Shown here piece by piece: positions 8,621 through 62,062 of a DNA stretch of 64,000 nt (positions within the stretch are counted from its first letter, which is position 1; each line of letters opens with the position of its first letter). The stretch comes from an uncultured virus (IMG/VR IMGVR_UViG_3300021185_003889) (taxonomy: Duplodnaviria; Heunggongvirae; Uroviricota; Caudoviricetes): IMG/VR virus record IMGVR_UViG_3300021185_003889. One strand, 5' to 3'. The translations under genes and the position numbers were made by a program. The notes under the pieces are model-generated. The model saw only the letters and a program-made list of their open reading frames with translations. It did no database searches and was not told the DNA's origin.

Positions 8621-8655
8621 TATTAATTGTTTTTATTGAGGTTCTACGACTCATT
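8621..8655 (-). ncRNA. Candidate preQ1-I-like riboswitch aptamer in folE leader
   Basis: UGAG-UCGUAGAAC-CUCA-AUAAAAAC-AAU, close to the type II preQ1-I pattern (CUGGG-UCGCAGUAAC-CCCAG-UUAACAAAAC-AAG). Confidence 0.6.
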
Positions 8656-17177: not shown

Positions 17178-17631
17178 ATATTGCGCTATTTTTACCGTGT
17201 TCTCTAAATTCTACCTTAATTACCTTTACTCTACCTTCAGTTTCTTCCTCTATAAAAGGATTTAACTTGTCATAAACGAATTGAGCAAATCTTTCTGCAC
17301 CTGTTGCAGGTACTACTCTTACTTGAGCTACTCCTGCATCATCCATCTTTTTGAAAGATTCTAGGAAAGGATCATCTTCAGCTACTATAAAAGTATGATC
17401 AAACATATAATCCATCCATGCTTTAGGAGTCATACCGTCAATTTTACCTTTTGCTCTTTTCATTCCTCCAAAGTCCCAAACCCAATTTCTTTCATCTAAT
17501 TCTCCTTCAAACCATAGTTTAAAAGATATACCATACCCATGTAAAAATCTACAATGAGTAGTTTCTGCTTTCCATTGACGAAATACTGTAGAGAATCCGT
17601 CAAATACCTTAGTTGATGTGTATTTTCCCAT
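17164..17631 (-). CDS. queD: 6-carboxytetrahydropterin synthase
   Basis: HCRFLHGY, WVWDFGGMK, FDHT, TGAE, VEFREHGKNSA. Confidence 0.92.
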   Translation of the reverse strand: MGKYTSTKVFDGFSTVFRQWKAETTHCRFLHGYGISFKLWFEGELDERNWVWDFGGMKRAKGKIDGMTPKAWMDYMFDHTFIVAEDDPFLESFKKMDDAGVAQVRVVPATGAERFAQFVYDKLNPFIEEETEGRVKVIKVEFREHGKNSAIYEPR

Positions 17632-17903
17632 TATACTAGTTCTTCGATTATACCTACTATTTCTGATAAGATAAGAAGAATAGCTGAGACTACCAAATTA
17701 AATGGTATAAAACAGTATCCTAAAATTCTGATACCTGATTTAATGAAAGAAACTATTTGATGCTTTCTAGCATCTGGATAGTTTAATGGTTTTGAGGGTG
17801 TAAGTTTGTTTTGATGTATACGGTTTACTAAGTATTGCTCTTCCGTCATTCTGCGAGACTCCACATCATAGAGATCTTTCTCGACTTCTTTTAATTCTAC
17901 CAT
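17631..17903 (-). CDS. Small membrane protein leading the queD-queE unit
   Basis: C-terminal hydrophobic helices; TAATG coupling to queD. Confidence 0.65.
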   Translation of the reverse strand: MVELKEVEKDLYDVESRRMTEEQYLVNRIHQNKLTPSKPLNYPDARKHQIVSFIKSGIRILGYCFIPFNLVVSAILLILSEIVGIIEELV

Positions 17904-17940
17904 TTTTAGTGTTTTTATAGTTGTGTTACGACACTATAGT
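17904..17940 (-). ncRNA. Second preQ1-I-like aptamer candidate (possibly degenerate or variant)
   Basis: AUAGUG-UCGUAACAC-AACUAU-AAAAAC-ACU; same 9-nt loop and A5C tail as the folE element. Confidence 0.45.
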
Positions 17941-17949
17941 CATTTAATA

Positions 17950-19683: not shown

Positions 19684-19794
19684 CTAGAAATTCTTATAAG
19701 TAAACGGATCTCTTTTTTTAAGTTCCTTAATTTTTTTATTAAATTCTTTTTCTTTTTGCCATTTTTTTATTTTCTCTCTAAGTTTTTTAATCAT
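19684..19794 (-). CDS. Small basic protein after carbamoyltransferase (36 aa), not in ORF track
   Basis: MIKKLREKIKKWQKEKEFNKKIKELKKRDPFTYKNF; ATGA overlap. Confidence 0.6.
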   Translation of the reverse strand: MIKKLREKIKKWQKEKEFNKKIKELKKRDPFTYKNF

Positions 19795-21431
19795 AGTTTT
19801 TTTATTAAATAATTGTTAAGTACTAAATAATCGATATCGGAATCTAAATATCTCTGTATAGCTTGTTCAGGAGATATAGTAATCGTTTGATCCTTAAGGT
19901 TAAATGATGTATTTAACACAACTGGTATCTTAGTTAATTTACCTACTTCCGATAATAGATTATAATACAAGGTATTTTGTTTTTTTGTTACAGTCTGCAC
20001 TCTACAAGTCCCGTCTATATGTGTTGCTGCAGGTAAAAAATTAACTTTAGCTTTAACTACCTGGTTCATATACGGAACAGGTTCTTTTATGTTAAAAAAC
20101 ATGTTAGCTTGTTCGTATATAACCGATGGAGCGAAAGGTCTAAAACCTTCTCTTTTCTTAATTACATAATTTAACTTTTCTCTCATCTTAGGATCCTTAG
20201 GAGATGCTAGTATACTCCTATTTCCTAATGCTCTTGCTCCGAATTCCATACGGCCTTGCAACCATGCTACTATATTCTGAGCTGCAATAAGTTTAGCAGT
20301 TTTATTTATTAGCTTTTCGTCTGTAAGTTTGAACGCCCATATTTTATCCTTATAGTTGTGTATTACTTTCTTAATTTGCTGGTTAGTAAAACCAGGGCCA
20401 AGGTAAGGTGAAGGTTTAGAGTGTCCATCAAGACATGCACCTATAGCAGAACCAGCGTCTGAAGGAGCAAAAGGTATATGTACTGATTTAAAGTATTTAT
20501 ATGCTAACGTATTGCCAACGCCATTGTAAGCGCATCCACCTCCAATACAAATATTTGAGGATCCTGTAAGCTCTTTTGCTTTTTTTACTAATAATAGAAA
20601 TTGATTTTCGTATAATTTCTGAAGTGCTGCTGCTAGATCTTTGTGATCCTGAGTTAAGGTATCTTCCGGCAGTCTTGGAGGTAATTCTAATAGACGACAT
20701 AATTTTTTATTAAACATTACCCGATCATCGTATTCCCAGGTAAAGTACTTTTGATATAAATATAATTTAGATTCATTCTTATTAAGAACTTGCTCTAATT
20801 TTTTTAAATATTTTTCTGGGTTACCATACGGTGCTAACCCCATAACTTTATATTCACCTTCATTAGGTTTAAATCCTAAAAAAGCAGTAATAGTACTATA
20901 TAACATTCCTAATGAATGAGGAAAGTTAACTGATTCTATTTTTCTTATAGATTTACCAGAACCAAAGGATATTGTAGTCGTTTCCCACTCTCCTACACCG
21001 TCTACTGTAAGTATTGCTGCATCCCTATATGGACTAGTATAATAGCTGAAAGCAGCATGACTGTAATGGTGATCGTGGTAAATGATTTTTCCGGTGTACC
21101 CCATATTTTTGAGAATAGTTTCCGGAGAGTTAATTTTTCTGTTCTTATTATACCTCTGTCGAAGAAAAAAAGTTCTAAACGGCCTTTTATTGAAGATAGT
21201 ATTGACTCTATCGTTTTTAATTTTTGGATTTTCATACCAATGTACTTCTTGAATATCATTAATTTGTTTTGCTGTTGCTCTTAACGCCCATTTTATTGCA
21301 TTGATAGGAAAACTACTATCATGCTTTATTCCAGTAAATCTTTCTTCTTCAGCAGCAGCCAACACCATATTACCTTGTGTTATACAAGCAGCAGAATCGT
21401 GATAAAATGCTGATATTCCTAATCTAATCAT
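19791..21431 (-). CDS. Carbamoyltransferase (NodU/CmcH family)
   Basis: GISAFYHDSAA, EEERF, HHYSHAA, DGVGEW, EYKVMGLAPYG, EFGARALGNRS, LNTSFN. Confidence 0.95.
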   Translation of the reverse strand: MIRLGISAFYHDSAACITQGNMVLAAAEEERFTGIKHDSSFPINAIKWALRATAKQINDIQEVHWYENPKIKNDRVNTIFNKRPFRTFFLRQRYNKNRKINSPETILKNMGYTGKIIYHDHHYSHAAFSYYTSPYRDAAILTVDGVGEWETTTISFGSGKSIRKIESVNFPHSLGMLYSTITAFLGFKPNEGEYKVMGLAPYGNPEKYLKKLEQVLNKNESKLYLYQKYFTWEYDDRVMFNKKLCRLLELPPRLPEDTLTQDHKDLAAALQKLYENQFLLLVKKAKELTGSSNICIGGGCAYNGVGNTLAYKYFKSVHIPFAPSDAGSAIGACLDGHSKPSPYLGPGFTNQQIKKVIHNYKDKIWAFKLTDEKLINKTAKLIAAQNIVAWLQGRMEFGARALGNRSILASPKDPKMREKLNYVIKKREGFRPFAPSVIYEQANMFFNIKEPVPYMNQVVKAKVNFLPAATHIDGTCRVQTVTKKQNTLYYNLLSEVGKLTKIPVVLNTSFNLKDQTITISPEQAIQRYLDSDIDYLVLNNYLIKKL

Positions 21432-21637
21432 TTTTTCTTTACTCCGAATTTACTAAATTTATACCAAGCTCTTTCATGAATATAGTATAAAATCATTTTA
21501 GTAAACACTTCTATACCTCCTATAGCTAATCCCCATTGCCATGAACCAGTTACAGCCCATGAAATAATCATTGTGTCTAATGTACCGATAACTCTCCAGG
21601 TAATAGTCTTTAAAATATGTCTCTTATAACTAACCAT
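21428..21637 (-). CDS. DUF2061 membrane protein
   Basis: RHILKTITWRVIGTLDT...YYIHERAW. Confidence 0.88.
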   Translation of the reverse strand: MVSYKRHILKTITWRVIGTLDTMIISWAVTGSWQWGLAIGGIEVFTKMILYYIHERAWYKFSKFGVKKK

Positions 21638-21644
21638 AACTAAT

Positions 21645-22133
21645 TTATAAATTGTACTTTACTTTTCCTATAGTAAAATGAATACTATATCTTGTACCTC
21701 TTGTAACTTCAGATACGTGATGTTTATCTTTTAAAGTATGTATAAAAATTTCTCCTCTTGTTGCTCTTGCAGGTTTACCATGTAAATGATATATTCCTCC
21801 ATCGTAATCTGAAGGATCGCTAAGTTCTATACCACCACTTAATACTCTATCACCTGCTGCTTCCCCATCTACATGCTCAATCATATAATCTCCTACGTCG
21901 TACCTAAGTCCGAAGACCCAGTTATTTACACAGTACCCTTCTCCTAACTTATCTTTAACTAAATCGTCACATTTTTTGTATATCATCCAAGTAAAAAAAT
22001 CTTTTTGTTGACTTTTAAAAATACTAGATCTTTTATGAGTACTAATAGAAGAGTTTACTTGTTCGAAGTCTTTAAAAAAAACTTTAACTACTTCATTACA
22101 GTAATCAGCATCCCATTTGAGAGTTGTTTTCAT
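21645..22133 (-). CDS. 2OG-Fe(II) oxygenase
   Basis: YDVGDYMIEHVD, YDGG, HHVSEVTRGTRYSI. Confidence 0.85.
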   Translation of the reverse strand: MKTTLKWDADYCNEVVKVFFKDFEQVNSSISTHKRSSIFKSQQKDFFTWMIYKKCDDLVKDKLGEGYCVNNWVFGLRYDVGDYMIEHVDGEAAGDRVLSGGIELSDPSDYDGGIYHLHGKPARATRGEIFIHTLKDKHHVSEVTRGTRYSIHFTIGKVKYNL

Positions 22134-22151
22134 CTTTTTTAAATAAATATA

Positions 22152-22886
22152 TTAAATTAATGCTCTATACTCCTTCATAAGTTGATTTTTAGTTGTTGAA
22201 GAATAGTGAGTATAGTTACAATTGTTCTGATTATCTTTATTGAAGTAAAATGGGTTTATTTTTTCTTTAAGTAAAAATTGTTTTACTAACATTTGAGCTC
22301 CACAAGCGGAGAATTGTTTATCTTTTTTATTAAACTTATATTTAGGTTCAATATATTCTGTAAAAAAATTTTGTGTCTTTTTATACTGGTCTGTTAATTT
22401 ATTTTTGATTAGATCATTATTGAAATACATTAAGCCTAAATTTACTGCAGATTTATTAGGAATATTCCATAATGGAATTTTTTTTTCTATTTCATTTTCA
22501 AGGAGAATTTTTTTCCAACTATTAACTAAAGGTCCAACGTTATTAATCATTACCTCAAAAGCTAAATCTGTATTTTTTGGAATTGGAACAGTTCTATTAA
22601 AAATAATATCTCCATCAGTAATTAAAAATTCACCATTTAGTATATCTGCTACATAAAATTTTAAATCAGCTAAAAATACAAAAGGTCTTTTTGGTAAAAT
22701 AATTACTTCGTCAACTATACCTTTAAATATATTTACATTTTCTTCTTCCGTGCAAATAATCTTATGGTAACTGTTAGGTGCTGATAAAATTGATTGTTTA
22801 AATAAAAATTGAATATACTCATGTGTGTATAGTGATATATTTTCACCTTTTTTCCAATCCTTACTATATGTCCAAACAAGTCTCAT
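22152..22886 (-). CDS. Putative GT-A-like glycosyltransferase (DUF6734-like)
   Basis: FLITDGDII DxD, NLGLMYF, YTHY. Confidence 0.5.
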   Translation of the reverse strand: MRLVWTYSKDWKKGENISLYTHEYIQFLFKQSILSAPNSYHKIICTEEENVNIFKGIVDEVIILPKRPFVFLADLKFYVADILNGEFLITDGDIIFNRTVPIPKNTDLAFEVMINNVGPLVNSWKKILLENEIEKKIPLWNIPNKSAVNLGLMYFNNDLIKNKLTDQYKKTQNFFTEYIEPKYKFNKKDKQFSACGAQMLVKQFLLKEKINPFYFNKDNQNNCNYTHYSSTTKNQLMKEYRALI

Positions 22887-23236
22887 TAGAGCTCACCATC
22901 TTTTCTCATCTGCTCTCTTATTTTAGTTGCAGATATTTCTTTTACGTCTGTTGGCGGTACATGTTCTATTATCTCATAACCTACACCTCTTCCATAATTT
23001 ACTGATTCGATATCAGGTATAATTACTACTTTGATTTTACCATCAGTTATTTCTTTAAAGAATCTGGTTTTTAAGTTATATTTTATTTCTTCCGCAGTCC
23101 AAGGTTGATTTTCATTAGGTTCTACATCACGTATTGCTATACAGACGTTTTTACCTTCTTTTAATCTTTGATCGATTAACCATTGATGACCATCATGCCA
23201 AGGTTGCCATCTACCTATAAATAAACTATATTTCAT
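22886..23236 (-). CDS. Small HIGH-type nucleotidyltransferase (candidate minimal ATP sulfurylase)
   Basis: FIGRWQPWHDGH, ISATKIRE; overlaps APS kinase. Confidence 0.75.
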   Translation of the reverse strand: MKYSLFIGRWQPWHDGHQWLIDQRLKEGKNVCIAIRDVEPNENQPWTAEEIKYNLKTRFFKEITDGKIKVVIIPDIESVNYGRGVGYEIIEHVPPTDVKEISATKIREQMRKDGEL

Positions 23237-23654
23237 TTAGTAATTTTTTAAACGACTCTTCTGGCGAGTCAAATGTTGTATTGATAGAAATGTAATTGTG
23301 ATCAGGAGGCATGTAAGCTATTGCAGCAAAATGATCTCTTTCTCTCTTTTCTGTTGTATAGACGTATATTTCTTTAAAATCTTCTCCTATAAGTTGTTTA
23401 AAATCTTCTCTTTGATCAATGTACGGTGACACTAATGCAACTATTACATCTTCTCCTTTGTTATGCAGGTAATGGGCTATATGTTGAGCTGTACTTACAT
23501 TTTCAACTCTTCCTTTTATAGAATAATCTTTATTAGAAAAAAGATCTCTCATATCATCTCCATCTATAAGGTATGTATGAGGAAGTTCTTGATGTAACAT
23601 ACCTGCAAGTGTTGTTTTTCCAGCCATCGGCTGACCTGTAAACCAATATATCAT
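23226..23654 (-). CDS. cysC: Adenylyl-sulfate kinase
   Basis: WFTGQPMAGKTT, IDGDDMR, DYSIKGRVEN, VALVSPY. Confidence 0.88.
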   Translation of the reverse strand: MIYWFTGQPMAGKTTLAGMLHQELPHTYLIDGDDMRDLFSNKDYSIKGRVENVSTAQHIAHYLHNKGEDVIVALVSPYIDQREDFKQLIGEDFKEIYVYTTEKRERDHFAAIAYMPPDHNYISINTTFDSPEESFKKLLNEI

Positions 23655-24694
23655 ATAAAACTTTTTTTATGTTCAACTAAATGATTAAAATTATGTATTA
23701 CGTTAGGTTGGTTAGATATAATCTTAAGCATTTCTAAAAATTCTTCATGGTCTGGGTGTTCTATTCTGCTTATATCCTTAGTGTTGTACTCTTTTTCACT
23801 AAATGTACCCCAGTTAGTTAAGTGATTAAAAAATATAGAGTACCTTTTATCTTTCAAATTATGTGAACTGTTAAATAACTGACAAAACATATCCATTTCT
23901 CTAAAATTAGTATCTTGCGTAACGAAAGAAAAGGTAAACTGTTTAATAGTATTTATAGAAGTAATAAATTTTAAGTTATTAATTAACTTATCCCACTTCC
24001 CACCTAACCTAACTTTATTTTCGTATGTATCTGCAGTTGCTGCATCTATTGATATTTCACAAGTTTTAACATACGAATGTATTTTGTGTAATTTATTCCA
24101 TAAAGACTCAGTCCACAGACTTCCATTAGTTAATATATGAATATTTTTTAACTTTGGAAACTTTTTTGGTTCAAATCTTAATAGGAATTTTCTGAAGCTG
24201 TTGGAAAAGAATGGATCGCCTCCTCCTGTTAAAGTAATTTTTTCTATATCTGATGCTAGCTCAGTTTCTACTTGTAGTAATTTTTCCTCTACTGTTTGAA
24301 CTTCTTTTCCTTTAAAATTTATAAAGTCTAATCTACAGGATGGGCATTTATAGTTACAGCTTTCATCGAAGCATAAATTTACATTTTTAAGTTTTGTATT
24401 ATTAATAACTGCTTCTATGTTTGCAGTTGATTTAGGTATTAACCTATTATCTATACTTTTACCTTGTTCAATTAATGATAAATGAGGACATTGTTGATCA
24501 TCACAGTATTTGTATGTACCATCTAATATACTATCTCTTATTTTTTCAGCTTTTTCACTATGAAAATCTTTTTTCATATTTCCAGTTTCGTACACACTTT
24601 CATTTAACCATCCAGGACAGCATAAATAATGCCTATCTTTGAATACTTCAGAGTACTTAAAAGGAATAGTACAGATATATTGTGATTTATGCAT
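23651..24694 (-). CDS. Radical SAM protein with N-terminal twitch/SPASM-like Cys cluster
   Basis: CTIPF, LCCP, CDDQQCP; CNYKCPSC; paralogue of 56529-57554. Confidence 0.88.
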   Translation of the reverse strand: MHKSQYICTIPFKYSEVFKDRHYLCCPGWLNESVYETGNMKKDFHSEKAEKIRDSILDGTYKYCDDQQCPHLSLIEQGKSIDNRLIPKSTANIEAVINNTKLKNVNLCFDESCNYKCPSCRLDFINFKGKEVQTVEEKLLQVETELASDIEKITLTGGGDPFFSNSFRKFLLRFEPKKFPKLKNIHILTNGSLWTESLWNKLHKIHSYVKTCEISIDAATADTYENKVRLGGKWDKLINNLKFITSINTIKQFTFSFVTQDTNFREMDMFCQLFNSSHNLKDKRYSIFFNHLTNWGTFSEKEYNTKDISRIEHPDHEEFLEMLKIISNQPNVIHNFNHLVEHKKSFI

Positions 24695-25305
24695 TAAATA
24701 AAAATCTTATCAGATACTCTATATTTAAATTCAGGATTAATATATTCTTTTAAATTTTCATATGATATATTGTTGGGTAGAGATTTTAAACATTTATTAA
24801 CTCTTTCAACATCACCAGAAAATAAATCTTCATACCAAATTATTTCCTTATTTAAATTTTTAGCTAATAATTTTAAATCAGACATATGACTATCGTATTG
24901 ATTACCGTATTCAATATAATCTTCTTCTGATATATTATCATTAAAGGTGTATTTACCATGCCATTCTTTAGGTCCTGTGTTATTTTTAATTGCATGTACA
25001 AAACTTTCTACCTGCTTTCTTTTATTCTTTCTTCCTAGACATATAACTATATCGAATTGTTTTGCAAATCTAGTATGAATATCTAATCTATCTTCATATT
25101 TTCCGTCAGAAGGTACTTGTGAAGCCATAGTCTTAATTACTACATTTTTTACATTTCTTTCTTGCAAAAAATCTTTAGATTGTCTATCGTGGTAAGTAGC
25201 TTTTAACCAAGGTTCAGTAATAGCTCTAAAATTGTATATTTTACCTATAGCTTTTAATAGTACTGTTGAACCGCTTCTAGGGATTGCTTCTATTAATATT
25301 TTCAT
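24694..25305 (-). CDS. Sulfotransferase-like protein
   Basis: IPRSGSTVL PAPS-binding loop, EPW, IWYEDL. Confidence 0.75.
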   Translation of the reverse strand: MKILIEAIPRSGSTVLLKAIGKIYNFRAITEPWLKATYHDRQSKDFLQERNVKNVVIKTMASQVPSDGKYEDRLDIHTRFAKQFDIVICLGRKNKRKQVESFVHAIKNNTGPKEWHGKYTFNDNISEEDYIEYGNQYDSHMSDLKLLAKNLNKEIIWYEDLFSGDVERVNKCLKSLPNNISYENLKEYINPEFKYRVSDKIFI

Positions 25306-26219: not shown

Positions 26220-26292
26220 TGGCGGGGATAGGACTCGAACCTATGACCTCCGGGTTATGAGCCCGGCGAGCTACCTGCTGCTCCACCCCGCA
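26220..26292 (-). tRNA. Initiator tRNA-fMet (CAU)
   Basis: TGCGGGGTGGAGCAGCAGGTAGCTCGCCGGGCTCATAACCCGGAGGTCATAGGTTCGAGTCCTATCCCCGCCA; 1:72 mismatch, A11:U24, three G-C pairs in anticodon stem; CCA not encoded. Confidence 0.96.
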
Positions 26293-26296
26293 ATCC

Positions 26297-26629
26297 TTAA
26301 TATCCTATTCTATAAAAAAGCCAAGCCGATACAGAGTTAGGTTTAGTAATAACTAATACATCATTTCTTTCATAGTAACTCAGAACATATTCATCATCTA
26401 TATCTGTCCTTTTAATGTATAGTTTACCACCATCTTCTCTTAATATACCTTTAGCCATGACCTTTTTATTGTCAATTCTAATAAATGAACCATCATTACC
26501 GATGTTAACAAATTCATTATCAAAACTTTGCCATTTACCTATAACATCCTTAGGTAAGTTATCCATATCTTTGAAATCCTGGGACTGTAAAGATATAGTA
26601 GTTAGTAAAAGTAAAAATAATTTACGCAT
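26297..26629 (-). CDS. Secreted hypothetical protein
   Basis: Signal peptide MRKLFLLLLTTISLQSQ; IGKW beta-rich domain. Confidence 0.7.
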   Translation of the reverse strand: MRKLFLLLLTTISLQSQDFKDMDNLPKDVIGKWQSFDNEFVNIGNDGSFIRIDNKKVMAKGILREDGGKLYIKRTDIDDEYVLSYYERNDVLVITKPNSVSAWLFYRIGY

Positions 26630-27413
26630 ATTGAGCTAATAATTTTTCTACATGTGCTTTCGCAACATCATATTCAACCTCTCCAGTTTCATCCTCATAT
26701 TGTACAGGGTCATCCACACCCAAGTTGATGAATGCTTCAATCCTTTCAACAGATGATGCTGATTTATAGTCACTATTACCGCTAGGATAGGGCTTATAAG
26801 ATGTATTAGTACGTTTGTATACATCATTAAAAGTAACTCCGAGCTCTTCAACCAATTTCTGTCCATCTTTTAAGATTCCAAGTTTATCTGTATCTAAGTA
26901 AGGAGTAAAATATCCTACTTTTTCTGCTTCCCAGTTACCTATTCTAAAGGCAGCATCGTCAGCATCTCTAAACTCTTGTCTGCAGTCAGGATAGATTGCA
27001 TGATCACCAGCATGAATACCTAATGCGATATCTGTATCGTTTCCATTAGAATTAGCTTCTGATAGAGCAACTGCTTGTACTAAAGAAGCAAATATCTTGT
27101 TTCTATTAGGTACTACTGTAGCTTTCATGTTATCTTCTTCATAATGACCTTCCGGTACATCATCTCCTCCTGTTACTAATGCTGAGTTTAGTAAATTAAC
27201 GAGTCCGTCAAGTTTAATAACTTGATACTTAATACTCTGACCATTAGCGTTTAAATAATCAACTAATGATTGAGCTCTTTCTAGTTCTACTCTATGCTTT
27301 TGACCGTAATCAAAAGATATTGCAGTAACATTGTCATACTCTGATAAACATCTGAGTAGTAAAGTTGAGGAGTCCATCCCTCCTGAAAGACTAATTACAA
27401 CATTTTTTGCCAT
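26622..27413 (-). CDS. queC: 7-cyano-7-deazaguanine synthase
   Basis: SLSGGMDSST, FDYGQKH, VPNRN, YPDCR. Confidence 0.95.
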   Translation of the reverse strand: MAKNVVISLSGGMDSSTLLLRCLSEYDNVTAISFDYGQKHRVELERAQSLVDYLNANGQSIKYQVIKLDGLVNLLNSALVTGGDDVPEGHYEEDNMKATVVPNRNKIFASLVQAVALSEANSNGNDTDIALGIHAGDHAIYPDCRQEFRDADDAAFRIGNWEAEKVGYFTPYLDTDKLGILKDGQKLVEELGVTFNDVYKRTNTSYKPYPSGNSDYKSASSVERIEAFINLGVDDPVQYEDETGEVEYDVAKAHVEKLLAQYA

Positions 27414-27429
27414 TTTATAAAATTTAATA

Positions 27430-27464
27430 TTTGCCAGGTATTATAAAGCGTATAGGCAAACGCT
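27430..27464 (-). ncRNA. Candidate H-type pseudoknot in queC leader
   Basis: AGCG(U)/(A)CGCU stem; loop UUGCC complementary to downstream GGCAA. Confidence 0.45.
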
Positions 27465-27759
27465 ATTCTAAAATAGAAGTTAAGGATTCTTTTACAGATT
27501 CCCAACGATCTACATAACTTTTTAAATCGTAAGTTTTACCTTCTTCATTTAATATTTCTCTTGCAACTGATCTTAGTGCATTACCAAAGTTAGAAGGATA
27601 TCCTAGAGTCTTAATATACTCTGTATTGTTGTCTCCTTTTACTACTCTTTCATATACAGTATAACCTCCTGTTTGAGATCGAGTAATAAAGAATGGTTCC
27701 ATAACTGGGTCTTGTATAATTGTATCCGATGACGGAATACTGTCTGGGTTTCGTAACAT
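27463..27759 (-). CDS. Hypothetical phage protein
   Basis: 98-aa ORF. Confidence 0.7.
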   Translation of the reverse strand: MLRNPDSIPSSDTIIQDPVMEPFFITRSQTGGYTVYERVVKGDNNTEYIKTLGYPSNFGNALRSVAREILNEEGKTYDLKSYVDRWESVKESLTSILE

Positions 27760-53784: not shown

Positions 53785-54024
53785 CTAAAGAGGAATAAAT
53801 TCTCCTGAATCTATGTCAACACTCCCCTTTCCGTATTTATCTTCTAGTTTTTTCGCTAGATCTTGTTCAGCTACCTTAAGTTGCTCAAAGTAACCTAATG
53901 CAGAAGCTTTTCTTTTTTTAAGAGTCTCTTCTGATATAGATATCTGTCCAAACTCATTTACTATTTTTTTAGTACTTTCTTGAATAGCTTTTAACTGAGC
54001 TATTTCTTCTTGTTCTAATTTCAT
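53785..54024 (-). CDS. Small coiled-coil phage protein
   Basis: LEDKYGKGSVDIDSGEF. Confidence 0.7.
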   Translation of the reverse strand: MKLEQEEIAQLKAIQESTKKIVNEFGQISISEETLKKRKASALGYFEQLKVAEQDLAKKLEDKYGKGSVDIDSGEFIPL

Positions 54025-55274
54025 ATAAATATAGATTTATCTTTTAATGCATTAACTAAATCTGGAAATAATGCTTTCCAGTCTTCTCTTCTTACTTTAT
54101 CTACCTCTTCTGTAGTATTAATAAATTCATTTACTAGTTTGTTATCTTCTGAATCGTAAAAGTTGCTTTTTAGTCTATTGAAAAAGCCTTCTTCTAGTTT
54201 ACCTTCTATGCTGTCTATTTTTTTTCTTCTTACTTCTAAAGGTATAACTTTTACATTATGGTAGTTAGGATAATTTACATAATTATCTCTAATTACTTTA
54301 ATAACACCAGTTCCGTCTTTATAATATAAGCCTTTTTCCTCTAAATACAAGTGAAGTTCCTCTAAATATAAAAAATTAAAAACATGAATAGTCTGAATTA
54401 TAGCATAATCAAAGTCATATTTGTCAGTATATTTCTTTATGTTACCAATTACTGTTTCAAATCTACTTAAACTTCTGATATAATCGTTTCTTTTAAAAGT
54501 ATCATCTAAACTAAAGTTTAATTTAACCTGTTTAAAGTGATGCAATCTATCTAATATAGGAACTATTCTTTCAAACTTATAATTACCGTTAGTAATATAC
54601 GTTATATAAATGTCTTTAGCTAAATCTCTTTCTATTAATAGATCTAATAGATATGAATGTTTATCTACTAAAAAAGGTTCACCGCCACTTATATGTAATT
54701 CATCTAATTTGAACCCATTCTGTAAAAGATCCAAATATACTTTAGGATCTTCTACCCAATCGTAATCAACTCCATCAGATTTAAGTTTATCGTATCCACT
54801 AGGTAGGTTTATTTTATCTTTTAATTTATAGTAATCGTCTACCCATGAAGTTGATGATTCAGCATTACAACTTCTACATTTTAAATTACAAAAATTACCT
54901 AGCCTTAATTCTAGGTACCTAACATCGGGCTGTATTGTACCATCTTCTTTAGTTATAGACTGTAGATAAGATTCATCTAATATTTTTTCTTTATTTCTTT
55001 TTGAAAATCCTCCTGCTTCTTCTATTTTATAGCAAGTTAAGCAAGCCTCTGGTACCTCACCGGATAGCATATCAGTTCTTATTTTTCTAAAAGACTCTGA
55101 GTTTACTATTTTATTAACTCCATCTCTTATATGTACGGGCCTACTATCTTTACTATCGAAGTTTTGTGATAAAGCATACTTACTTTCCCAATTAGCTTCA
55201 CAGCAAACAGAAGACCATCCATGTGGCATAACACTTAGGTGTTTCCATGGTAAACTACATATAAATTTACTCAT
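54021..55274 (-). CDS. Twitch/SPASM radical SAM protein
   Basis: CSLPW, VCC, CLTC; CNLKCRSC; SGGEPF. Confidence 0.9.
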   Translation of the reverse strand: MSKFICSLPWKHLSVMPHGWSSVCCEANWESKYALSQNFDSKDSRPVHIRDGVNKIVNSESFRKIRTDMLSGEVPEACLTCYKIEEAGGFSKRNKEKILDESYLQSITKEDGTIQPDVRYLELRLGNFCNLKCRSCNAESSTSWVDDYYKLKDKINLPSGYDKLKSDGVDYDWVEDPKVYLDLLQNGFKLDELHISGGEPFLVDKHSYLLDLLIERDLAKDIYITYITNGNYKFERIVPILDRLHHFKQVKLNFSLDDTFKRNDYIRSLSRFETVIGNIKKYTDKYDFDYAIIQTIHVFNFLYLEELHLYLEEKGLYYKDGTGVIKVIRDNYVNYPNYHNVKVIPLEVRRKKIDSIEGKLEEGFFNRLKSNFYDSEDNKLVNEFINTTEEVDKVRREDWKALFPDLVNALKDKSIFI

Positions 55275-56529
55275 GGTAATGCTTGTTTTTTAAATCTTCG
55301 AACTCAGGAAAAATTTTAAAAAAGTCTACTTTCCTTATTCTATCTAATTTACCTTGCATATAACTATATGCTTCTTCGTTATACTTGTCTGCTCTTAAAT
55401 TTGATCCTTGCTTAATATATTTTACTACTTTTTCAAAAGCTCTAACATCACTAAGTATATGATTTTCTTCTCCTTCTAACGTTTTTAACCACTCTATATG
55501 ATTATTGTATTTATCTACTAAAGCATCTAAATGATTCTTAGGAAGCTTCCAAAGAGTAAACTGAACAGGTGCATGTAAAATATTTGCATGAATTTTACCA
55601 ACTGATAAGTAATTTTTTTCAATAAACTCTCTATGTAAATCAACAACGTTGTAAGAATTTAACCAACTTATAGTTGGAGCAATATTAAAATCTAAATGAG
55701 GTACTTCTTTTTGTAGTCTTTCAATATTAGCTTCTACATTATTCCATTTTATGTTAGTACGTAAATATTCTCCTCGAGAATGAGATCCATCAAGACTAGC
55801 TTGAATACATATTTCTTTAAACTCTTTCCACAACGGTACTACATCCCATACTCCGTATGTTAACTTAGCCATATTAGTACTATACAAAAGAGCAATTTTG
55901 TCAGCTCTACCTTTTTCTATAATTTTATTTAATAATTTATAATGTTCTGGTAGCATTAAAGGTTCTCCACCAGCAAAATATATCTGTCTTATATTATCTA
56001 TTTGATCATATAGTTGAAGTAATAAATTTTCAGTATTTTCAATAGATTTGAGCTTAGGGGCTCCTTCAGGAGTTAAACCTAATGCTACTGAATCATTATA
56101 CCATGATGTAGACCAATTGCTTCCACAGCTTACACATTTTAAATTACATTTATTTGAGAAACGAATGTCTATATACCTTAATTTTAAATCTGGTATGAAA
56201 AAGTTGTTTTCATTAGTAGCTTTAACTACATCGTCATAATCATATACCCTGTTAAAATTATACCTTAATGACTGTTCTCCTTTATCCTCCAATTCCCAAC
56301 AGTGATCACACCCTTTTACTTTTACACCATTATGAAGGTCTTTACGTAACTGAACAGCTGCTGGGGAGTTCATGTGTTCTTGTAAATCGTCATCACCTGA
56401 ATATGTAGATAATTTATGTTCAGGGTTAAAAATACAACAGGGCATGAACTCTCCTTGTGTTCCTATGTAGGAAGCAATATAAGGTGCAGAACAAAAAGTA
56501 CCTTCCATATTTCTTATTTCTTTTTCCAT
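55267..56529 (-). CDS. Twitch/SPASM radical SAM protein
   Basis: CSAPY, PCC, CDHC; CNLKCVSC; AGGEPL. Confidence 0.9.
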   Translation of the reverse strand: MEKEIRNMEGTFCSAPYIASYIGTQGEFMPCCIFNPEHKLSTYSGDDDLQEHMNSPAAVQLRKDLHNGVKVKGCDHCWELEDKGEQSLRYNFNRVYDYDDVVKATNENNFFIPDLKLRYIDIRFSNKCNLKCVSCGSNWSTSWYNDSVALGLTPEGAPKLKSIENTENLLLQLYDQIDNIRQIYFAGGEPLMLPEHYKLLNKIIEKGRADKIALLYSTNMAKLTYGVWDVVPLWKEFKEICIQASLDGSHSRGEYLRTNIKWNNVEANIERLQKEVPHLDFNIAPTISWLNSYNVVDLHREFIEKNYLSVGKIHANILHAPVQFTLWKLPKNHLDALVDKYNNHIEWLKTLEGEENHILSDVRAFEKVVKYIKQGSNLRADKYNEEAYSYMQGKLDRIRKVDFFKIFPEFEDLKNKHYHE

Positions 56530-57554
56530 TACAGTAACTCAGCTTCTAGTTCTAAATTAGATATAACATTTCGATATCTATTTAATTTACGTACCTCATT
56601 TACAAACTCATAATGTTCAGGATGAGTATTATCTAGTACATTGACTTTTTTATATTCTTCTTCTGAGAATGTTCCCCAGTTAGCAACTCTATAAAAAATA
56701 TTTTTATGATCTCTATGTTTATAGAATATCTTATTCATTAACTCCACAAATGGAATTATTTCTTTATAGTTTGCTTGTTGTGTGACAAAAGAAGTAGTAA
56801 TTTTATCTATAGTTTCTATTTTGTTAATAAACTTAAGATTTTCAATCAACACATCCCATTTACCTCCCAGTCTAGTTTTATTTTCATAAGTGTCTTTAGT
56901 TGCAGCATCTATGCTTATCTCAACTTGCTTTATAAACTTTCTAACATTTTTTAGTTTATCCCAAAGTTTGGTAGTTAAAAGTATACCATTAGTATGTAAT
57001 ATAATTCTATCTAACTTAGGGTACTTTTCTACTGGAAAGTTAATTAGATACTCTCTCATTGGTTTACTATAAAGAGGATCACCAGTACCGCTAGTAAAAA
57101 ATTCCTCAAGTTCATCACTAAATCCTTCTTCTACCTTTCTCAACTGATTTAAAGTCAATGCTGTATTAAGGTCTGTATTAGGTATAATATTATCCCTGCA
57201 AGTAGGACATCTTAAGTTACAAGACTGGTCAATACAAATTTTTATTCGTTTAGGTTTATTGTAATTATTAGGATTAAATTCCTTAATAGGTCTTATCGGA
57301 CCTGTTGCTTCGCCTTTATTAACAAGTACATTTAAATGTGGACAGAATTCACTACTACAGTTTTTAAATGTACCATCCAGCATAGATTCTCTTATCTCTT
57401 CTGCTTCTGTGCTAAACCAGTTTTTTAAATAATCAGGAGATTTTTTTAAATTAGTATCATTCCAATACGGACAGCACATAGTTTGTCTATCCTTATGAAT
57501 CTCTGTATAGGTAAAAGGTAAGTCACAAAAATAATTTTTTAGATCTACTTTCAT
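56529..57554 (-). CDS. Twitch/SPASM radical SAM protein
   Basis: CDLPF, MCCP; CNLRCPTC; GTGDPL. Confidence 0.9.
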   Translation of the reverse strand: MKVDLKNYFCDLPFTYTEIHKDRQTMCCPYWNDTNLKKSPDYLKNWFSTEAEEIRESMLDGTFKNCSSEFCPHLNVLVNKGEATGPIRPIKEFNPNNYNKPKRIKICIDQSCNLRCPTCRDNIIPNTDLNTALTLNQLRKVEEGFSDELEEFFTSGTGDPLYSKPMREYLINFPVEKYPKLDRIILHTNGILLTTKLWDKLKNVRKFIKQVEISIDAATKDTYENKTRLGGKWDVLIENLKFINKIETIDKITTSFVTQQANYKEIIPFVELMNKIFYKHRDHKNIFYRVANWGTFSEEEYKKVNVLDNTHPEHYEFVNEVRKLNRYRNVISNLELEAELL

Positions 57555-58813
57555 ATACTATTCAATTTAAAATGATTATAGGTAAAAGGATCTAATTCTA
57601 AAAAATTTTGTTTTCTCTTCTTATCTAAAATATCTGTAAACTTAACAAAGTCTCTTATACTGCTTTTCTCTGATGTTATTTTGATTAAGGTAATTAAAGA
57701 TTTAAGTTTGTTAATAATCCACTTTTTTCTAGATTCAGGTATGTTAGTATACCTAACTTTTAAGTAGTTTATTTTATCGTTTATTTTTAATATTGCTTTT
57801 TCTTTAAGTTCCTCTGGTATATTTTTTATATTTAGATAATGAGGATTAGTAACTGGATGTAGTACAGGTATAAAATTTCTATCTAAGAAGAAATCTATAG
57901 CATCAAGCATATGAATTAAATTATATGTTTGAACTGTATAGTTAGCATATACGTTAATATTAGTCTTATTATTTCTAATATACTGATCTAACATATCTAT
58001 CTTTTTATTTATAACTGACCATTTCATAGGGTACCTAACATATTCATATGTATCTTCTATACCATCAATAGAAAAATCAATATTAACGTTTTTAAACTTA
58101 TTGAGTTTAGTGAGTAAGTCAAAATTTAATTTAGTTAGATTAGTATTTATTCTTAGATCTAAATTATATGAATGACCTGATTCTATAAAGAAATCTATAA
58201 GTTCATAAAAAGACTTATTAATTAAAGGTTCTCCACCGGAAAATCTTATAACTTCTATATCTTCAACATTATCTTTAATATGGTTACAGTATTGTTCCAT
58301 ATCAATATTAACAGGTTCGTCTAATGTAGGAAAAAGATTTTTAAGAGAATCTTCTGATAATGTAGATGTTATCTCTAAATACTCATTATTAATAAGGTTT
58401 GAGTCTTGAGGTGAACACATTCTACATTTTAAGTTACATAAGTTACCTACTCTATACTCAACTGATATAGGAGCATGATTAAGTATCCCGTTATTCTTTC
58501 TAGCTGATTGTACTCTTTCGATAAACTTTTTATCGTTTTGATAAGATTCTACTAAATCAGTTCGTAGGGATGCACCCCCTTCTTTTTCAGCATGATAACA
58601 TACATCACATCCTTTGATATATTCACCGTTTATACTTTTTATTCTGTCTTTTGCTAATTGTTCACTATTCCAAAAACTCTCTAGTGGCTGATCTACTGTT
58701 ATTCCGTTTACTTTACCATTTTTTATCTCAGGTACGTGCAAACAACATGCTTTATAAACTCCATAGGAGTCATTCATTACATGATTGAAAAAACTAGGGC
58801 AGAAAGAGTTCAT
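57551..58813 (-). CDS. Twitch/SPASM radical SAM protein
   Basis: CPSFF, ACC, CDVC; CNLKCRMC; SGGEPL. Confidence 0.9.
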   Translation of the reverse strand: MNSFCPSFFNHVMNDSYGVYKACCLHVPEIKNGKVNGITVDQPLESFWNSEQLAKDRIKSINGEYIKGCDVCYHAEKEGGASLRTDLVESYQNDKKFIERVQSARKNNGILNHAPISVEYRVGNLCNLKCRMCSPQDSNLINNEYLEITSTLSEDSLKNLFPTLDEPVNIDMEQYCNHIKDNVEDIEVIRFSGGEPLINKSFYELIDFFIESGHSYNLDLRINTNLTKLNFDLLTKLNKFKNVNIDFSIDGIEDTYEYVRYPMKWSVINKKIDMLDQYIRNNKTNINVYANYTVQTYNLIHMLDAIDFFLDRNFIPVLHPVTNPHYLNIKNIPEELKEKAILKINDKINYLKVRYTNIPESRKKWIINKLKSLITLIKITSEKSSIRDFVKFTDILDKKRKQNFLELDPFTYNHFKLNSI

Positions 58814-58824
58814 GATTAAAAAGG

Positions 58825-60144
58825 TTAAATATTAGATTTAACCTTATTGTTTGTATCAGGAATACTGTCATACCAGTCTTTATAATATGGGTATACTGTA
58901 GTGAAAGATTCTTTTCTATACTCATCTACTAAAGAAACAATATTTTTCATTTCTCCGTTTTCTTTAGACTTATCTACTTCTCCTTTATCTAACTCGAAAT
59001 ACTTAGTAATAATATCGTACTTTTGTTTCATTTGTTTTTTATAAAACTCTGGTACTTTTCTCAGATGGTTATATAGGTTATCTCTAGCTTTTATTTTTAA
59101 ATCAGTTGGTAAAGTATCTAAAGCATAGTATCTTGGGAAAGTTAAAACGTTATTTAAATGAACACCATGCCATTGAACTCCTAACTCAATCATTCTATCT
59201 ACGAAGTCTGGTATTTGAAATATATTTAGTATACTTACAGTACAACTAAAGTCAAAATGAAATCCTTTATCGATAGCTAATCTAACGTTATCTTCTATTT
59301 TTTTCCAATCTGTTCCAGATCTAGCATATTCTGCAACATCTCCCATTGCGTCTAATGAAGCAAATATTCTTACATTAAGAGGATTACGTTTAGTAAAATG
59401 GCTCCACAGTTCTAAAACATCCCATTTTTTAAACTTTAACATACTGAAGTTAGTGTTATATCTAATGCGGGTATCAGTGTTACCTATTTCGATAAGCTTT
59501 TCTAAAATCATATAATGCTCTTCCATCATCAATGGTTCTCCACCTGCAAAATAAATCTCTTCTACGTCTTCAATAAACATATCTATATACTCATAGATAT
59601 TTTTTTTACTCCAATCGTTTACATGTATAAGTGCTCTATCATTTTCACTCTGACCAAATATATCTACTTCATCTTTATACCATTTAGAACTAAGAGATGA
59701 ACCGCACATTCTACATTTAAAGTTACATAAGTTAGAAAAACGAAAATCCCAATACCTTAAAGTAAAATCATTACTATGTCCATCTTCTTCAGTAGTATCA
59801 ACAAAAGTATCTAAATGATCTTTCATTAATCTATTTGAAGCTACCCTCATACTCTCATCTCCGTTTTCTTCTTGAAGATAGCATTTAGCACAATGTTCAT
59901 GTTTTTTACCCTCAAGTTTATCTTTTCTTAACTCCTTCATTCTATCTGCATTCCACAACTCTTCTAAAGTTGCATCTTTTACATGTCCGATAGGATGTCT
60001 ATAGTCAGTCAAACAACAAGGATATACTCTACCATCAGGCCAGTGATGTAAATGAGACCAAGGTAATGCACAGAATGTTTTACTTATTCTATCTCCTGGG
60101 TTTTCCTTAAACTTATACTTAATATGATTTCTATGTTCCGCCAT
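58825..60144 (-). CDS. Twitch/SPASM radical SAM protein
   Basis: CALPW, PCC, CAKC; CNFKCRMC; AGGEPL. Confidence 0.9.
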   Translation of the reverse strand: MAEHRNHIKYKFKENPGDRISKTFCALPWSHLHHWPDGRVYPCCLTDYRHPIGHVKDATLEELWNADRMKELRKDKLEGKKHEHCAKCYLQEENGDESMRVASNRLMKDHLDTFVDTTEEDGHSNDFTLRYWDFRFSNLCNFKCRMCGSSLSSKWYKDEVDIFGQSENDRALIHVNDWSKKNIYEYIDMFIEDVEEIYFAGGEPLMMEEHYMILEKLIEIGNTDTRIRYNTNFSMLKFKKWDVLELWSHFTKRNPLNVRIFASLDAMGDVAEYARSGTDWKKIEDNVRLAIDKGFHFDFSCTVSILNIFQIPDFVDRMIELGVQWHGVHLNNVLTFPRYYALDTLPTDLKIKARDNLYNHLRKVPEFYKKQMKQKYDIITKYFELDKGEVDKSKENGEMKNIVSLVDEYRKESFTTVYPYYKDWYDSIPDTNNKVKSNI

Positions 60145-61481
60145 TATATTGTATTATACCAATTTAACATTTCAGCTGTAAAGTGCTTTTCTATAGGCAT
60201 TTCTCTACGTACTGCGTATTGTTTAGTGAAGTTCTTAAAGTCAGTTAATTTCTTATCTAACTCATCATTATCTTCTTGTGATTTCGTAACATTTTTTAAA
60301 TACTTAGTTAGTCTTGTTATTTGATTTATTTCCCAAGGTCTTAAAACGTCCTTGATTTTATCTAACGTATTTTCTATTCTTTCAGCTAATATATCTTTAT
60401 ATTGCTGCTCTATAATATTTACACTTTGAAAAGAAGGAAATCTTAAAATATTTAAGGACATATAAAACTGATCAGGTCTAGTTGATTTTCTCCATTGAAC
60501 TATCTTTTCTAAAAATTCAGCAACACCCCAAACACTTAATGCTGATATAGTCATCATTATATTAACCGTCGTAACAGAGTCTTCTTTATTTAATGCAAAC
60601 ATATTTTTTTCCCATACATCCCATTCAAAACCATCTCTTACAAAATCCTGCAAAGGACCGTAACATTCAGCAGATGTATATATTTCAAACTTTTTAAATT
60701 TTTTACTTGCAGCTACTAATTTTTGTAATCTGCTATCTTCCATAATAAGATTACTATTAACTGCAAAATCAAATTTTTCATTCTCACAAACATCTAAAAG
60801 ATGCCAGAAAGAAGGACTCCTTGAAGGTTCACCGCCTGAAACTCTAAGTTCATATAACCCGTCTTTTATTTCAGGAAACCAATCAAAGAACCGTTTAACA
60901 TAAATATTACCTTCATTCTTATTTCCAAAAGGCATTGCCAGTGAACCATCTTGTCTATAAGTTTTTCCTCCAAATGTTTCCATATCTTTGTATGGACCGT
61001 TTGTTGTAATATCTTTAGACCAAGTAGAACTAAATTCAGAGTTACAATATGAACATGCTAAGTTACATAAGTTATCAAAGCATATTTCTACAGTTTTAGG
61101 ATTAACATTTTTATCCCACGGTATATCTTTCAAGGCAGCTATTTCCTCATCAGTATAACGAGCAGTTTGATATACTCTATCACTATACACTCCTTCTCTA
61201 TTACCACCTGATGCGTCTTCTGCAGTCCAACAGTATGAACACTCTGGCGGTCTTTCTCCCTCCAGCATCATCTTACGTTGTTTCTTTTTAAACTCTGTAT
61301 TATGTAATGCTGATGCGTCTTTGGCTAGTTCTTCATCTGGTATTTTATGAGCGAGAGGATGGTGACAAGAAGCTGTTCTACCGTTACCTAACCAAATAGA
61401 TACGTTGTACCATTTTGCCGCACAAAATGATGTTGATGTATTATTCATCGCCTTTAATGCATTCTCATAGGATGTTTTCAT
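60144..61481 (-). CDS. Twitch/SPASM radical SAM protein
   Basis: CAAKW, SCHHP, CSYCW; CNLACSYC; SGGEPS. Confidence 0.9.
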   Translation of the reverse strand: MKTSYENALKAMNNTSTSFCAAKWYNVSIWLGNGRTASCHHPLAHKIPDEELAKDASALHNTEFKKKQRKMMLEGERPPECSYCWTAEDASGGNREGVYSDRVYQTARYTDEEIAALKDIPWDKNVNPKTVEICFDNLCNLACSYCNSEFSSTWSKDITTNGPYKDMETFGGKTYRQDGSLAMPFGNKNEGNIYVKRFFDWFPEIKDGLYELRVSGGEPSRSPSFWHLLDVCENEKFDFAVNSNLIMEDSRLQKLVAASKKFKKFEIYTSAECYGPLQDFVRDGFEWDVWEKNMFALNKEDSVTTVNIMMTISALSVWGVAEFLEKIVQWRKSTRPDQFYMSLNILRFPSFQSVNIIEQQYKDILAERIENTLDKIKDVLRPWEINQITRLTKYLKNVTKSQEDNDELDKKLTDFKNFTKQYAVRREMPIEKHFTAEMLNWYNTI

Positions 61482-62062
61482 GCTATTTGGTATATAAAAT
61501 TTAAGTTGCCAGTTTTATCTACAGACTTACCGTGTATTATCTCACTAAAATCATGATGACATGCTAAACCTTCTGTATCGTATATTTTAAAATTTAATAA
61601 CTTTATATCTATTTGTTCAGATTCTTCTTGTGTAACATGTGTATTTGCACCTAAAAAAATTACTGGGTTATCAACTATAGCTAAAGGTGTTTCTGATAAA
61701 CTGTATTCAAATTCAATTTTCTTATTTATTGATACTGTTAACTTTTCTTTAGGTAGGTGCTCATAAGTTACATTATACTTTACATTAGGTTCAAATATAT
61801 AATTAGTTTCTACTCTATCATTTTGATTATCGTATCCTAATCCTATAAACAATCTATTTTCAAATATAGATAAACTTGTACATTTAGGAACAAAACAGAA
61901 TACATCTTTTACAGTAGAAAAATTATTTTCAGTATTTTCAAAATCTACTTCTATCTTCCAATAATGATCCCCCTGAACTCTAGGAAGTATAGGGTTAGGT
62001 AGAAATGAAGGGCATATACTATCTGGCCATAACATCCATGGGTATCTTCTACTTATATTCAT
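61478..62062 (-). CDS. LamG/concanavalin A-like beta-sandwich protein (start likely ATG 62062)
   Basis: Beta-rich, IFLGA, NFKIY, DKTGN end typical of LamG-like domains. Confidence 0.5.
   Translation of the reverse strand: MNISRRYPWMLWPDSICPSFLPNPILPRVQGDHYWKIEVDFENTENNFSTVKDVFCFVPKCTSLSIFENRLFIGLGYDNQNDRVETNYIFEPNVKYNVTYEHLPKEKLTVSINKKIEFEYSLSETPLAIVDNPVIFLGANTHVTQEESEQIDIKLLNFKIYDTEGLACHHDFSEIIHGKSVDKTGNLNFIYQIA

Follow-up and report, generated by a model that had tools for sequence, protein, structure and literature searches.

The queC gene of an uncultured virus of the Caudoviricetes (IMG/VR record IMGVR_UViG_3300021185_003889; 72 kb, 44% complete) lies on the minus strand of the 64,000-nucleotide stretch of DNA analysed here, referred to as the window. 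It is preceded by a 32-base leader element, on the minus strand from 27464 to 27433, which is predicted to fold into an H-type RNA pseudoknot with two stems, P1 and P2. The features of the locus, with the basis of each where it applies, are the following.

26622-27413, minus strand: queC (Pfam QueC, 135 bits), with its AUG at 27413
27414-27432, minus strand: A/U-only initiation region of 19 nt without a Shine-Dalgarno sequence (spacer composition)
27433-27435, minus strand: P2 3' strand, GGC (subtype comparison)
27436-27446, minus strand: loop 3, with the conserved core (A)AUAC at 27442-27438, ending AAUAC-CU (sequence-free search)
27447-27451, minus strand: P1 3' strand, ACGCU, with A27451 at the position of the preQ1-I specificity C
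27452-27454, minus strand: loop 2, UAU, the last U (27452) being kept in all subtypes
27455-27457, minus strand: P2 5' strand, GCC (subtype comparison)
27458-27459, minus strand: loop 1, UU, variable, 1-6 nt across subtypes
27460-27464, minus strand: P1 5' strand, AGCGU, the last U being the invariant closing base
27463-27759, minus strand: 98-aa ORF upstream of queC (ORF call); the gene at this place varies among relatives
27477-27505, minus strand: promoter-like TTG-N20-TAACTT, inside the end of the upstream ORF

A tRNA gene with a CAU anticodon (26220-26292, minus strand) lies just downstream of the queC-110 aa pair. Elsewhere in the window, large cysteine-motif proteins resembling radical SAM enzymes, one of them confirmed by Pfam, are encoded at 53785-62000 and 23651-24694 (minus strand), with glycosyltransferase-like genes upstream of the radical SAM-like run, and the region 19791-25305 holds a cluster of APS kinase, cytidylyltransferase-like and carbamoyltransferase genes.

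The original prediction of a pseudoknot at this place had given its letters exactly (minus strand 27464-27430, then 16 A/U bases at 27429-27414 and the AUG at 27413), and the 5-bp P1 that it proposed, AGCG(U)/(A)CGCU, is borne out and covaries. Its P2, UUGCC/GGCAA, has to be shortened: GCC/GGC is conserved, the outer G of GCC being paired in all 75 distinct subtype-1 sequences, whereas the two outer U-A pairs are kept in only 29 and 45 of these. Moreover, 5 bp in P1 and 5 bp in P2 would together leave a loop 1 of 0 nt. The first U of loop 2 stands opposite position 27436, a combination that is U.U in 73 of the 75 distinct subtype-1 sequences, U.G in one and U-A in one. The element, first described as GC-rich, is so relative to its surroundings only (the motif has 41% G+C, the spacer 0% and the window ~33%). 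None of 20,000 base shuffles of the 55-nt gap yielded a pseudoknot with at least 5 bp in P1, at least 4 bp in P2 and at least 6 G-C pairs, and the wider descriptor defined below has a single match in the 72-kb genome, the queC-leader element itself. The nested-only fold of the queC leader region is unremarkable (z = 0.26), so the evidence for the pseudoknot is comparative and not thermodynamic. The last two bases of the UAG stop codon of the 98-aa ORF (27463-27759) are the first A and G of P1; this ORF is placed outside the element because the upstream gene differs among relatives. Readthrough of the stop codon was considered and rejected, as the UAG lies inside P1 and queC in another frame.

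An element of the same kind, termed subtype 1, is visible by eye in 79 of the best 80 of 598 viral QueC loci, and the genes upstream of it vary. It was searched with a pattern in which P1 was left unspecified, and 120 viral loci of ~430 were examined. The pattern lies ahead of queC in 96 of the 120, and 95 of these 96 have at least 4 P1 pairs. Two further loci with P1 are cut contigs, in which the next codons resemble a QueC start; the remaining 22 have no queC start behind the pattern, and not one of them reaches four P1 pairs. On a tree of 191 QueC proteins, P1 pairs 1 and 2 changed on both sides together in 10 of 10 and 13 of 13 cases, and the next P1 pair changed 15 and 18 times in 19 events, counts that may be inflated if phages exchange leaders. 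The carriers number more than 100 phage sequences, including two cultured phages, Flavobacterium phage immuto_2-6A and Bacteroides phage BS162P1. The former has the same motif ahead of a queC whose product is 68% identical to that of the window, and its DNA is reported to be fully modified, with dG replaced by fdPreQ1 (10.1101/2023.04.13.536721).

More distant QueC proteins led to five further subtypes, six in all, with stems unrelated in sequence. All of them close P1 with a U-A pair, have a U as the last base of loop 2, just before the P1 3' strand, and carry AUAC where loop 3 ends. A descriptor built on these features demands a U-A-closed P1 with no fewer than 4 bp, a P2 with no fewer than 3 bp, a final U in loop 2, and AUAC followed by 0-2 nt as the last bases of loop 3. 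It matched 163 of 216 distinct viral queC leaders, none of the 80 nearest cellular ones and none of 4320 dinucleotide shuffles. Given that some of the viral loci had been fetched by the motif and that the descriptor presupposes the core, the search was repeated by geometry only on protein-fetched loci. This retrieved 111 of 165 viral leaders, 6 of 77 cellular ones (unrelated and without the core) and 1 of 220 shuffles, and AUAC closes loop 3 in 75 of 75 distinct viral pseudoknots found in this way.

P2 covaries as well. A subtype-4 pattern in which P2 was left open, save for its last pyrimidine, gave 83 matches; among the 32 distinct ones, P2 pairs over at least 4 bp in 26, whereas 2000 swaps of the 3' strands gave 10.7 on average and 18 at most. 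The 132 distinct motifs (one chance match dropped) display 19 P1 and 29 P2 strand pairs, P2 ranging from 3 to 7 bp and the element from 32 to 45 nt. Thus, ~8 junction bases are kept across the six subtypes while the stems vary freely, as is the case in ligand-binding aptamers. Subtype 2, which varies mainly in third codon positions, carries less weight than the other subtypes because it falls within the last coding part of an upstream dpdA-like gene; subtypes 1 and 3-6 are largely non-coding.

Subtype 2 occupies the last codons of the dpdA-like gene in loci L040, L044, L060, L068, L330 and L348; in locus L448 the same dpdA-like coding end does not form the pairing, and a subtype-1 motif stands apart from it. 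This suggests a deletion after which coding sequence gave rise to subtype 2. Loci L447 (1400-1480), L689 and L155 (1195-1620) between them show tandem motifs, either two subtype-1 copies or subtype 3 with subtype 4, and a case in which a subtype-1 copy is stranded before a broken queC start while a subtype-3 copy stands before the intact gene. Such tandem and stranded copies indicate that the leaders move as modules.

Bacteroidota ribosomes ignore Shine-Dalgarno sequences, and no Shine-Dalgarno-like word occurs in any of the 202 spacers between motif and start codon. The spacers average 6% G+C, with A at -3 in 85% and A at -12/-13 in 69-74%, which is typical of a Flavobacterium initiation region. 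Among 111 distinct motifs, the end of P2 lies 17-24 nt from the QueC start in all but one, where the distance is 9 nt. As the low-structure zone reported for F. johnsoniae extends from -20 to +20 (PMC6847099), the fold would stop at the edge of the initiation region. Upstream, the promoter-like pattern seen at queC also occurs before folE, ORF 17903, ORF 28180 and the PRTase gene. For 35 of the 197 loci with the motif, but for none of 197 control windows, TTG-N19-21-TAHHTT ends no more than 16 nt ahead of P1. With the spacing of 4-5 nt between promoter box and transcription start given in PMC6847099, the box at 27505-27477 would start a transcript ~5-6 nt before P1.

The motif keeps to queC. 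The descriptor was run on both strands of 4.73 Mb of overlapping viral loci fetched by protein; 155 of its 208 matches lie at most 400 nt from queC. Among 34 distinct matches away from queC three are convincing, all of them queC-linked, one standing before an HNH-like gene inserted ahead of queC; among the other distant ones, that in L410 is coding and the rest were judged by eye to be chance. The descriptor matched none of 53 folE, 45 queD, 46 queE, 39 queF, 52 dpdA and 41 dpdN leaders. As judged from these matches, the link of the motif to QueC-family genes is exclusive. Where HNH-like genes are inserted between motif and queC (L468, 965-1489; L689), they take over the leader, with the motif still 24-25 nt ahead of their own start codon; the gene inserted in L468 overlaps with the beginning of queC. 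The motif is dispensable, being absent from about a quarter of the queC genes sampled. Seventeen motif-less queC genes mostly abut or overlap the preceding gene, often behind dpdA, and no motif was found within ~12 kb upstream of them (6 kb for one), so that its relocation to operon heads was rejected for these genes.

Of the 83 subtype-4 matches, 60 stand before queC, one before an HNH-like gene that precedes queC, and five are chance; the remaining 17 belong to another phage group, the Bacteroides phages. There, the motif is followed after 20-24 nt by an ORF of 34-57 aa rich in K, R, A and G, for which no PHROG match was obtained (4 tested). These small ORFs (L659, 1061-1192; L625, 1062-1166; L838, 2819-2929; and those of five further lineages) cannot be aligned, often end in SKS, do not have glycine at their N-termini and follow a SpoVS-family gene. 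The small ORF is separated by a strong hairpin, with a U tail in 6 of 7 cases, from a QueC-family gene (39-62 bits with Pfam in 5 of 5), behind which comes a TGT/DpdA-like gene (2 of 2 tested). The cultured phage BS162P1 has this same layout of motif, small ORF, hairpin and QueC. In 5 of 8 Bacteroides-phage lineages P1 begins 4 nt behind a TAnnTTTG box, and in 2 others 7-8 nt behind it, a spacing that would place the pseudoknot at the 5' end of the message in these phages. By analogy with QatB/QatC or CdnD/Cap9, one might guess that the small basic peptide is a partner or substrate of the QueC-like enzyme.

The QueC proteins of the two groups are barely alignable (27% identity over 94 aa, E 0.007 with BLASTP), although both are above the Pfam QueC cut-off, and a close-relative search of GTDB gave no relative of the Bacteroides-phage QueC. 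The latter keeps the zinc motif and has altered YxQxHxxE and YPDC, described as QueC signatures (PMC13329287); YPDC is altered in 7 of 7 proteins, in one merely to YADC. In the alignment, the clade of the window's QueC (26622-27413) keeps SGGxDS, YxQxHxxE, VPxRN and YPDC, and has serines instead of the C(x)8CxxCxxC zinc motif. Since the fully fdPreQ1-modified immuto_2-6A has a 68% identical QueC, this zinc-free form may be active. Subtypes are scattered over the QueC tree, with 23 changes; together with the occurrence of subtype 4 before barely alignable QueCs, this indicates that the RNA does not track the protein. The Bacteroides-type phages have FolE (5 of 5), QueD (4 of 5) and one QueC each, and neither Pfam nor the window's QueF detected a QueF in them, the weak Pfam matches in G001-G003 being folE. 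In a small sample of five motif-bearing genomes, no QueF was found in three (G002, 98% complete; G008, 100%, a complete large phage with subtype 6; and BS162P1) and matched in two (G006 and immuto_2-6A). In a control, the QueF search matched Bacteroides thetaiotaomicron.

The original prediction had likened the element to the preQ1-I riboswitch (Rfam RF00522), and the resemblance holds for the fold. The preQ1-I riboswitch is described as an H-type pseudoknot with a P1 of 5-6 bp and a very short loop 2 (PMC10622847); the queC-leader element shares this compact architecture, an A-rich loop 3 and a place in the leader of a queuosine-pathway gene. Types I-III have in common a specificity cytidine (C15/C17; 97% conserved in type III) (PMC10622847, PMC8752633), and a second (beta) site of type I is built from U7, U16 and C31 (PMC8752633). 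When matched by hand to type I, our element has U at the U6 position, U at U16 and AC at A30-C31. Unlike in preQ1-I, the specificity C is replaced by an invariant A able to pair with the U6 equivalent. The U6 and loop-3 A (A29/A30) with which preQ1-I reads the minor-groove edge of its ligand both have equivalents here, but the U can be engaged by that A. In the sequence-free search, this U-A closing pair was recovered in 68 of 75 cases; in the other 7, the same UA is shifted by one pair.

A retained type-I beta pocket was considered and fits only in part: the U16 and C31 equivalents are kept, but that of U7 is not, since any of the four bases can stand there, depending on the subtype (U in 59 of 73 subtype-1 and A in 28 of 40 subtype-4 sequences). 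The element differs further from preQ1-I in its P2, a freely variable Watson-Crick helix of 3-7 bp that holds no Shine-Dalgarno sequence, and in its position, since the fold ends 17-24 nt before the AUG and sequesters no start signal; nor was a terminator-like site found in the window between 26100 and 28300. It has no Rfam match and was found only in phages. By these comparisons, the queC-leader element is not a preQ1-I member, the likeness lying in scaffold and pathway.

Candidate leaders of a preQ1-I-like kind are present in the same genomes. A mini preQ1-I-type leader precedes folE (8621-8655, minus strand), with a 4-bp stem, a loop ending in C and an AAAAC tail, directly behind a promoter-like box; the same type occurs in 36 of 53 distinct related folE leaders, with covarying stems. 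A twin at ~17904-17945 (minus strand) lies ahead of the operon of ORF 17631-17903, queD and queE; its loop and 3' strand deviate from the consensus of the relatives, and it may be degenerate. The mini-leaders share genomes, pathway and promoter-like box with the queC motif, and differ from it in keeping the loop C and the AAAAC tail. Those before folE end 5-12 nt from the AUG and overlap the initiation region, whereas the queC motif remains outside it, which marks the latter as a different element. An exact pattern for the mini-leaders found none in 4 of 5 motif-bearing genomes tested. Thus, this phage group appears already to use RNA sensors in this pathway, with the mini-leaders as candidates.

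Searches of databases and literature gave no precedent. Rfam returned one tRNA only for the whole window at the gathering score, five chance matches for the queC gap at E<=10, and a tRNA and a chance CRISPR repeat for 12 loci of other subtypes at E<=1, a weak test given that Rfam also misses the mini preQ1-like leaders. In GTDB, the subtype-1 pattern has an estimated ~1,700 matches, in line with the ~2,800 or so expected by calculation, and 0 of 120 examined stand before queC; the subtype-4 pattern has three matches. A metagenome scan gave mostly chance matches, 1 of 121 lying before queC. The motif is not described in the literature searched; the main text of PMC5737381 does not mention queC, and the motif does not occur in the PMC10690425 supplement files covered. 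RNA-seq contigs, which come from relatives and not from this phage, share at most 0.23 of words and carry no information on strand, start or level. The early view that the pseudoknot belongs to no recognised class agrees with the absence of an Rfam match, and a covarying pseudoknot tied to queC is supported. Judged by comparison of sequences, the queC-leader pseudoknot is a real, well-covarying and uncatalogued phage RNA family, broader than first seen.

What does the element do? We rate at about even chances that phages use it as a riboswitch responding to a 7-deazaguanine at the QueC step, for which the substrate CDG is the likeliest candidate. The stems vary freely around junction bases that do not change, which points to a site of binding where P1 and P2 meet. 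A small molecule is a more likely partner than QueC, since the RNA remains constant while QueC changes beyond recognition and the subtypes are shuffled over the tree; a near-identical motif ahead of two barely alignable QueC lineages tilts the sequence evidence the same way. Some features would speak against a riboswitch. Unlike most riboswitches, the motif never stands before another pathway gene among the folE, queD, queE, queF, dpdA and dpdN leaders; the P2 range of 3-7 bp suggests that stability is not finely tuned; ~8 invariant bases are few; and in the Bacteroides phages a predicted hairpin separates the led ORF from queC.

The foremost alternative, though we regard it as doubtful, is a protein-bound translational operator, in which QueC (or another phage pathway protein) would grip the invariant junction bases and block the 30S subunit from the edge of the initiation region, in the manner of T4 gp32 at the pseudoknot of its own leader. 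The exclusive link to queC fits this, as does a fold that abuts the initiation region and never enters it (17-24 nt in 110 of 111), a geometry suited to a block by something larger than a base; no alternative fold is required, P2 stability would be free to vary, and the distance of 24-25 nt is restored behind the HNH-like insertions in L468 and L689. In phage T4, an unstructured A/U-rich initiation region follows the gene 32 leader pseudoknot. The queC motif likewise stands directly upstream of an unstructured cognate initiation region, except in the Bacteroides phages, where the small ORF intervenes. Gene 32 is a phage precedent, its leader pseudoknot lying directly upstream of its gene (PMC10690425). 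However, gp32 is a single-stranded nucleic-acid-binding protein and QueC a small-molecule enzyme, for which no report of RNA binding was found ('RNA binding' occurs 0 times in PMC13329287). Nearly the same subtype-4 RNA serves two barely aligning QueC lineages that differ in zinc and substrate motifs, and subtypes are swapped among QueC clades; so wide a persistence across unrelated QueCs sets the motif apart from the gene 32 case. Moreover, in 8 Bacteroides-phage lineages the led ORF is the small basic peptide with a terminator-like hairpin, so that binding would not directly limit QueC.

A ligand-independent structural element, acting as a 5'-end mRNA cap or as an enhancer that docks on the 30S platform at a set distance, and raising the output of the next ORF, is decidedly unlikely. 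It would account for the start near +1 in Bacteroides phages (4 nt after the TAnnTTTG box in 5 of 8 lineages, 7-8 nt in 2), for the fixed spacing to the AUG, and for the leading of a small basic ORF of an often-abundant kind, and the conserved loop-3 bases could be purely structural triples. A general enhancer would, however, be expected before other highly expressed genes, and the matches cluster within 400 nt of queC (155 of 208), the other convincing ones being queC-linked; subtype 2, besides, lies within the coding end of the upstream dpdA-like gene. Finally, a DNA-level site (promoter or operator) or a coding constraint, which nearby promoter-like boxes and the coding, mostly third-position variation of subtype 2 might suggest, is barely credible and seems largely refuted by P2 covariation, since two interleaved stems are replaced wholesale with pairing kept, no DNA motif or simple palindrome fits, the promoter-like box is separate and upstream, and subtypes 1 and 3-6 are largely non-coding.

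If the element is a riboswitch for a 7-deazaguanine, it would act as RNA in cis, with the ligand lodged between the U-A pair closing P1 and the first P2 pair, touching the loop-2 U and the loop-3 AC. Its folded state would leave initiation open and would thus be permissive, tuning the gene ~20 nt downstream, probably upward, for example by shortening the exposed A/U-rich strand or by capping the 5' end against decay. Within this reading, an ON switch for the substrate CDG ranks first, though rather doubtful overall, and would need to work by way of mRNA decay or protection of the 5' end; an OFF switch for a product (preQ0 or ADG) is less likely still, and might act by resisting S1, denying bS1/30S a landing strand. 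In line with the latter, S1 is reported to prefer and unfold the less folded preQ1-I pseudoknot (PMC7038950), and bS1 to reach -12 to -15 (PMC6847099). Another ligand, preQ1 included, is highly improbable.

Of the three ligands that had been named at the outset (CDG, preQ0 and preQ1), preQ1 ranks last, since phages without a QueF match keep the motif, an argument weakened by the possibility that the host supplies QueF. Given that QueF is missing in some carriers while FolE and QueD are present and YPDC is altered, CDG is the shared metabolite: it is the one that all carriers must make and that QueC consumes. DpdA3 'may insert CDG' (10.1101/2023.04.13.536721), which would give a reason to clear it. 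That a separate element is kept without QueF, placed where its folding would leave initiation open, fits a different signal from that of the folE mini-leader, perhaps of opposite sign.

A conserved alternative fold or expression platform was not found among Shine-Dalgarno words, opening costs and loop-start pairings. The predicted cost of opening -15 to +12 with the real motif, compared with the shuffled one, is 6.5 vs 7.6 kcal/mol in subtype 1 and 7.9 vs 8.3 kcal/mol in subtype 4, the two large subtypes; it exceeds that of the shuffled controls in subtypes 3, 5 and 6, which are small (n = 4-5 each). Loop pairing with the start region occurs in 84 of 131 subtype-1, 5 of 48 subtype-4 and 0 of 21 other leaders, loop-to-AUG pairing being a subtype-1 trait tied to AUG-GCA starts. 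Start-codon sequestration as the basis of an ON switch is seen in the window's nested fold, but was rejected as it is not conserved. As no alternative pairing proved to be conserved, the OFF state that an ON switch requires is left unexplained, which is the weak point of that form of the riboswitch reading.

The family now comprises six subtypes with unrelated stems sharing a junction core, the window's element being one of them, and subtype 4 is also present in Bacteroides phages. Taken furthest, and held only tentatively, these data could describe a phage-only riboswitch class for 7-carboxy-7-deazaguanine, which would turn on the CDG-consuming enzyme while preQ1-type leaders throttle entry into the pathway. 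It would act in Shine-Dalgarno-blind Bacteroidota from a constant position 20 nt upstream of the start codon, would need no alternative pairing, and would have moved between Flavobacterium-type and Bacteroides phages, governing in the latter a small basic peptide, maybe a partner or substrate of the divergent QueC. No riboswitch for 7-carboxy-7-deazaguanine was found in the literature searched.

If the element binds CDG, ADG or preQ0, it would represent a new class of riboswitch in which the preQ1-I scaffold holds a new pocket, and through which phages would meter the flux of a pathway that replaces every guanine in their DNA. If QueC binds the motif instead, a metabolic enzyme would double as an RNA-binding repressor. 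Either way, an element of only 32-45 nt, with six natural stem variants and two cultured carriers, makes the control of translation by leader RNA in Bacteroidota directly testable.
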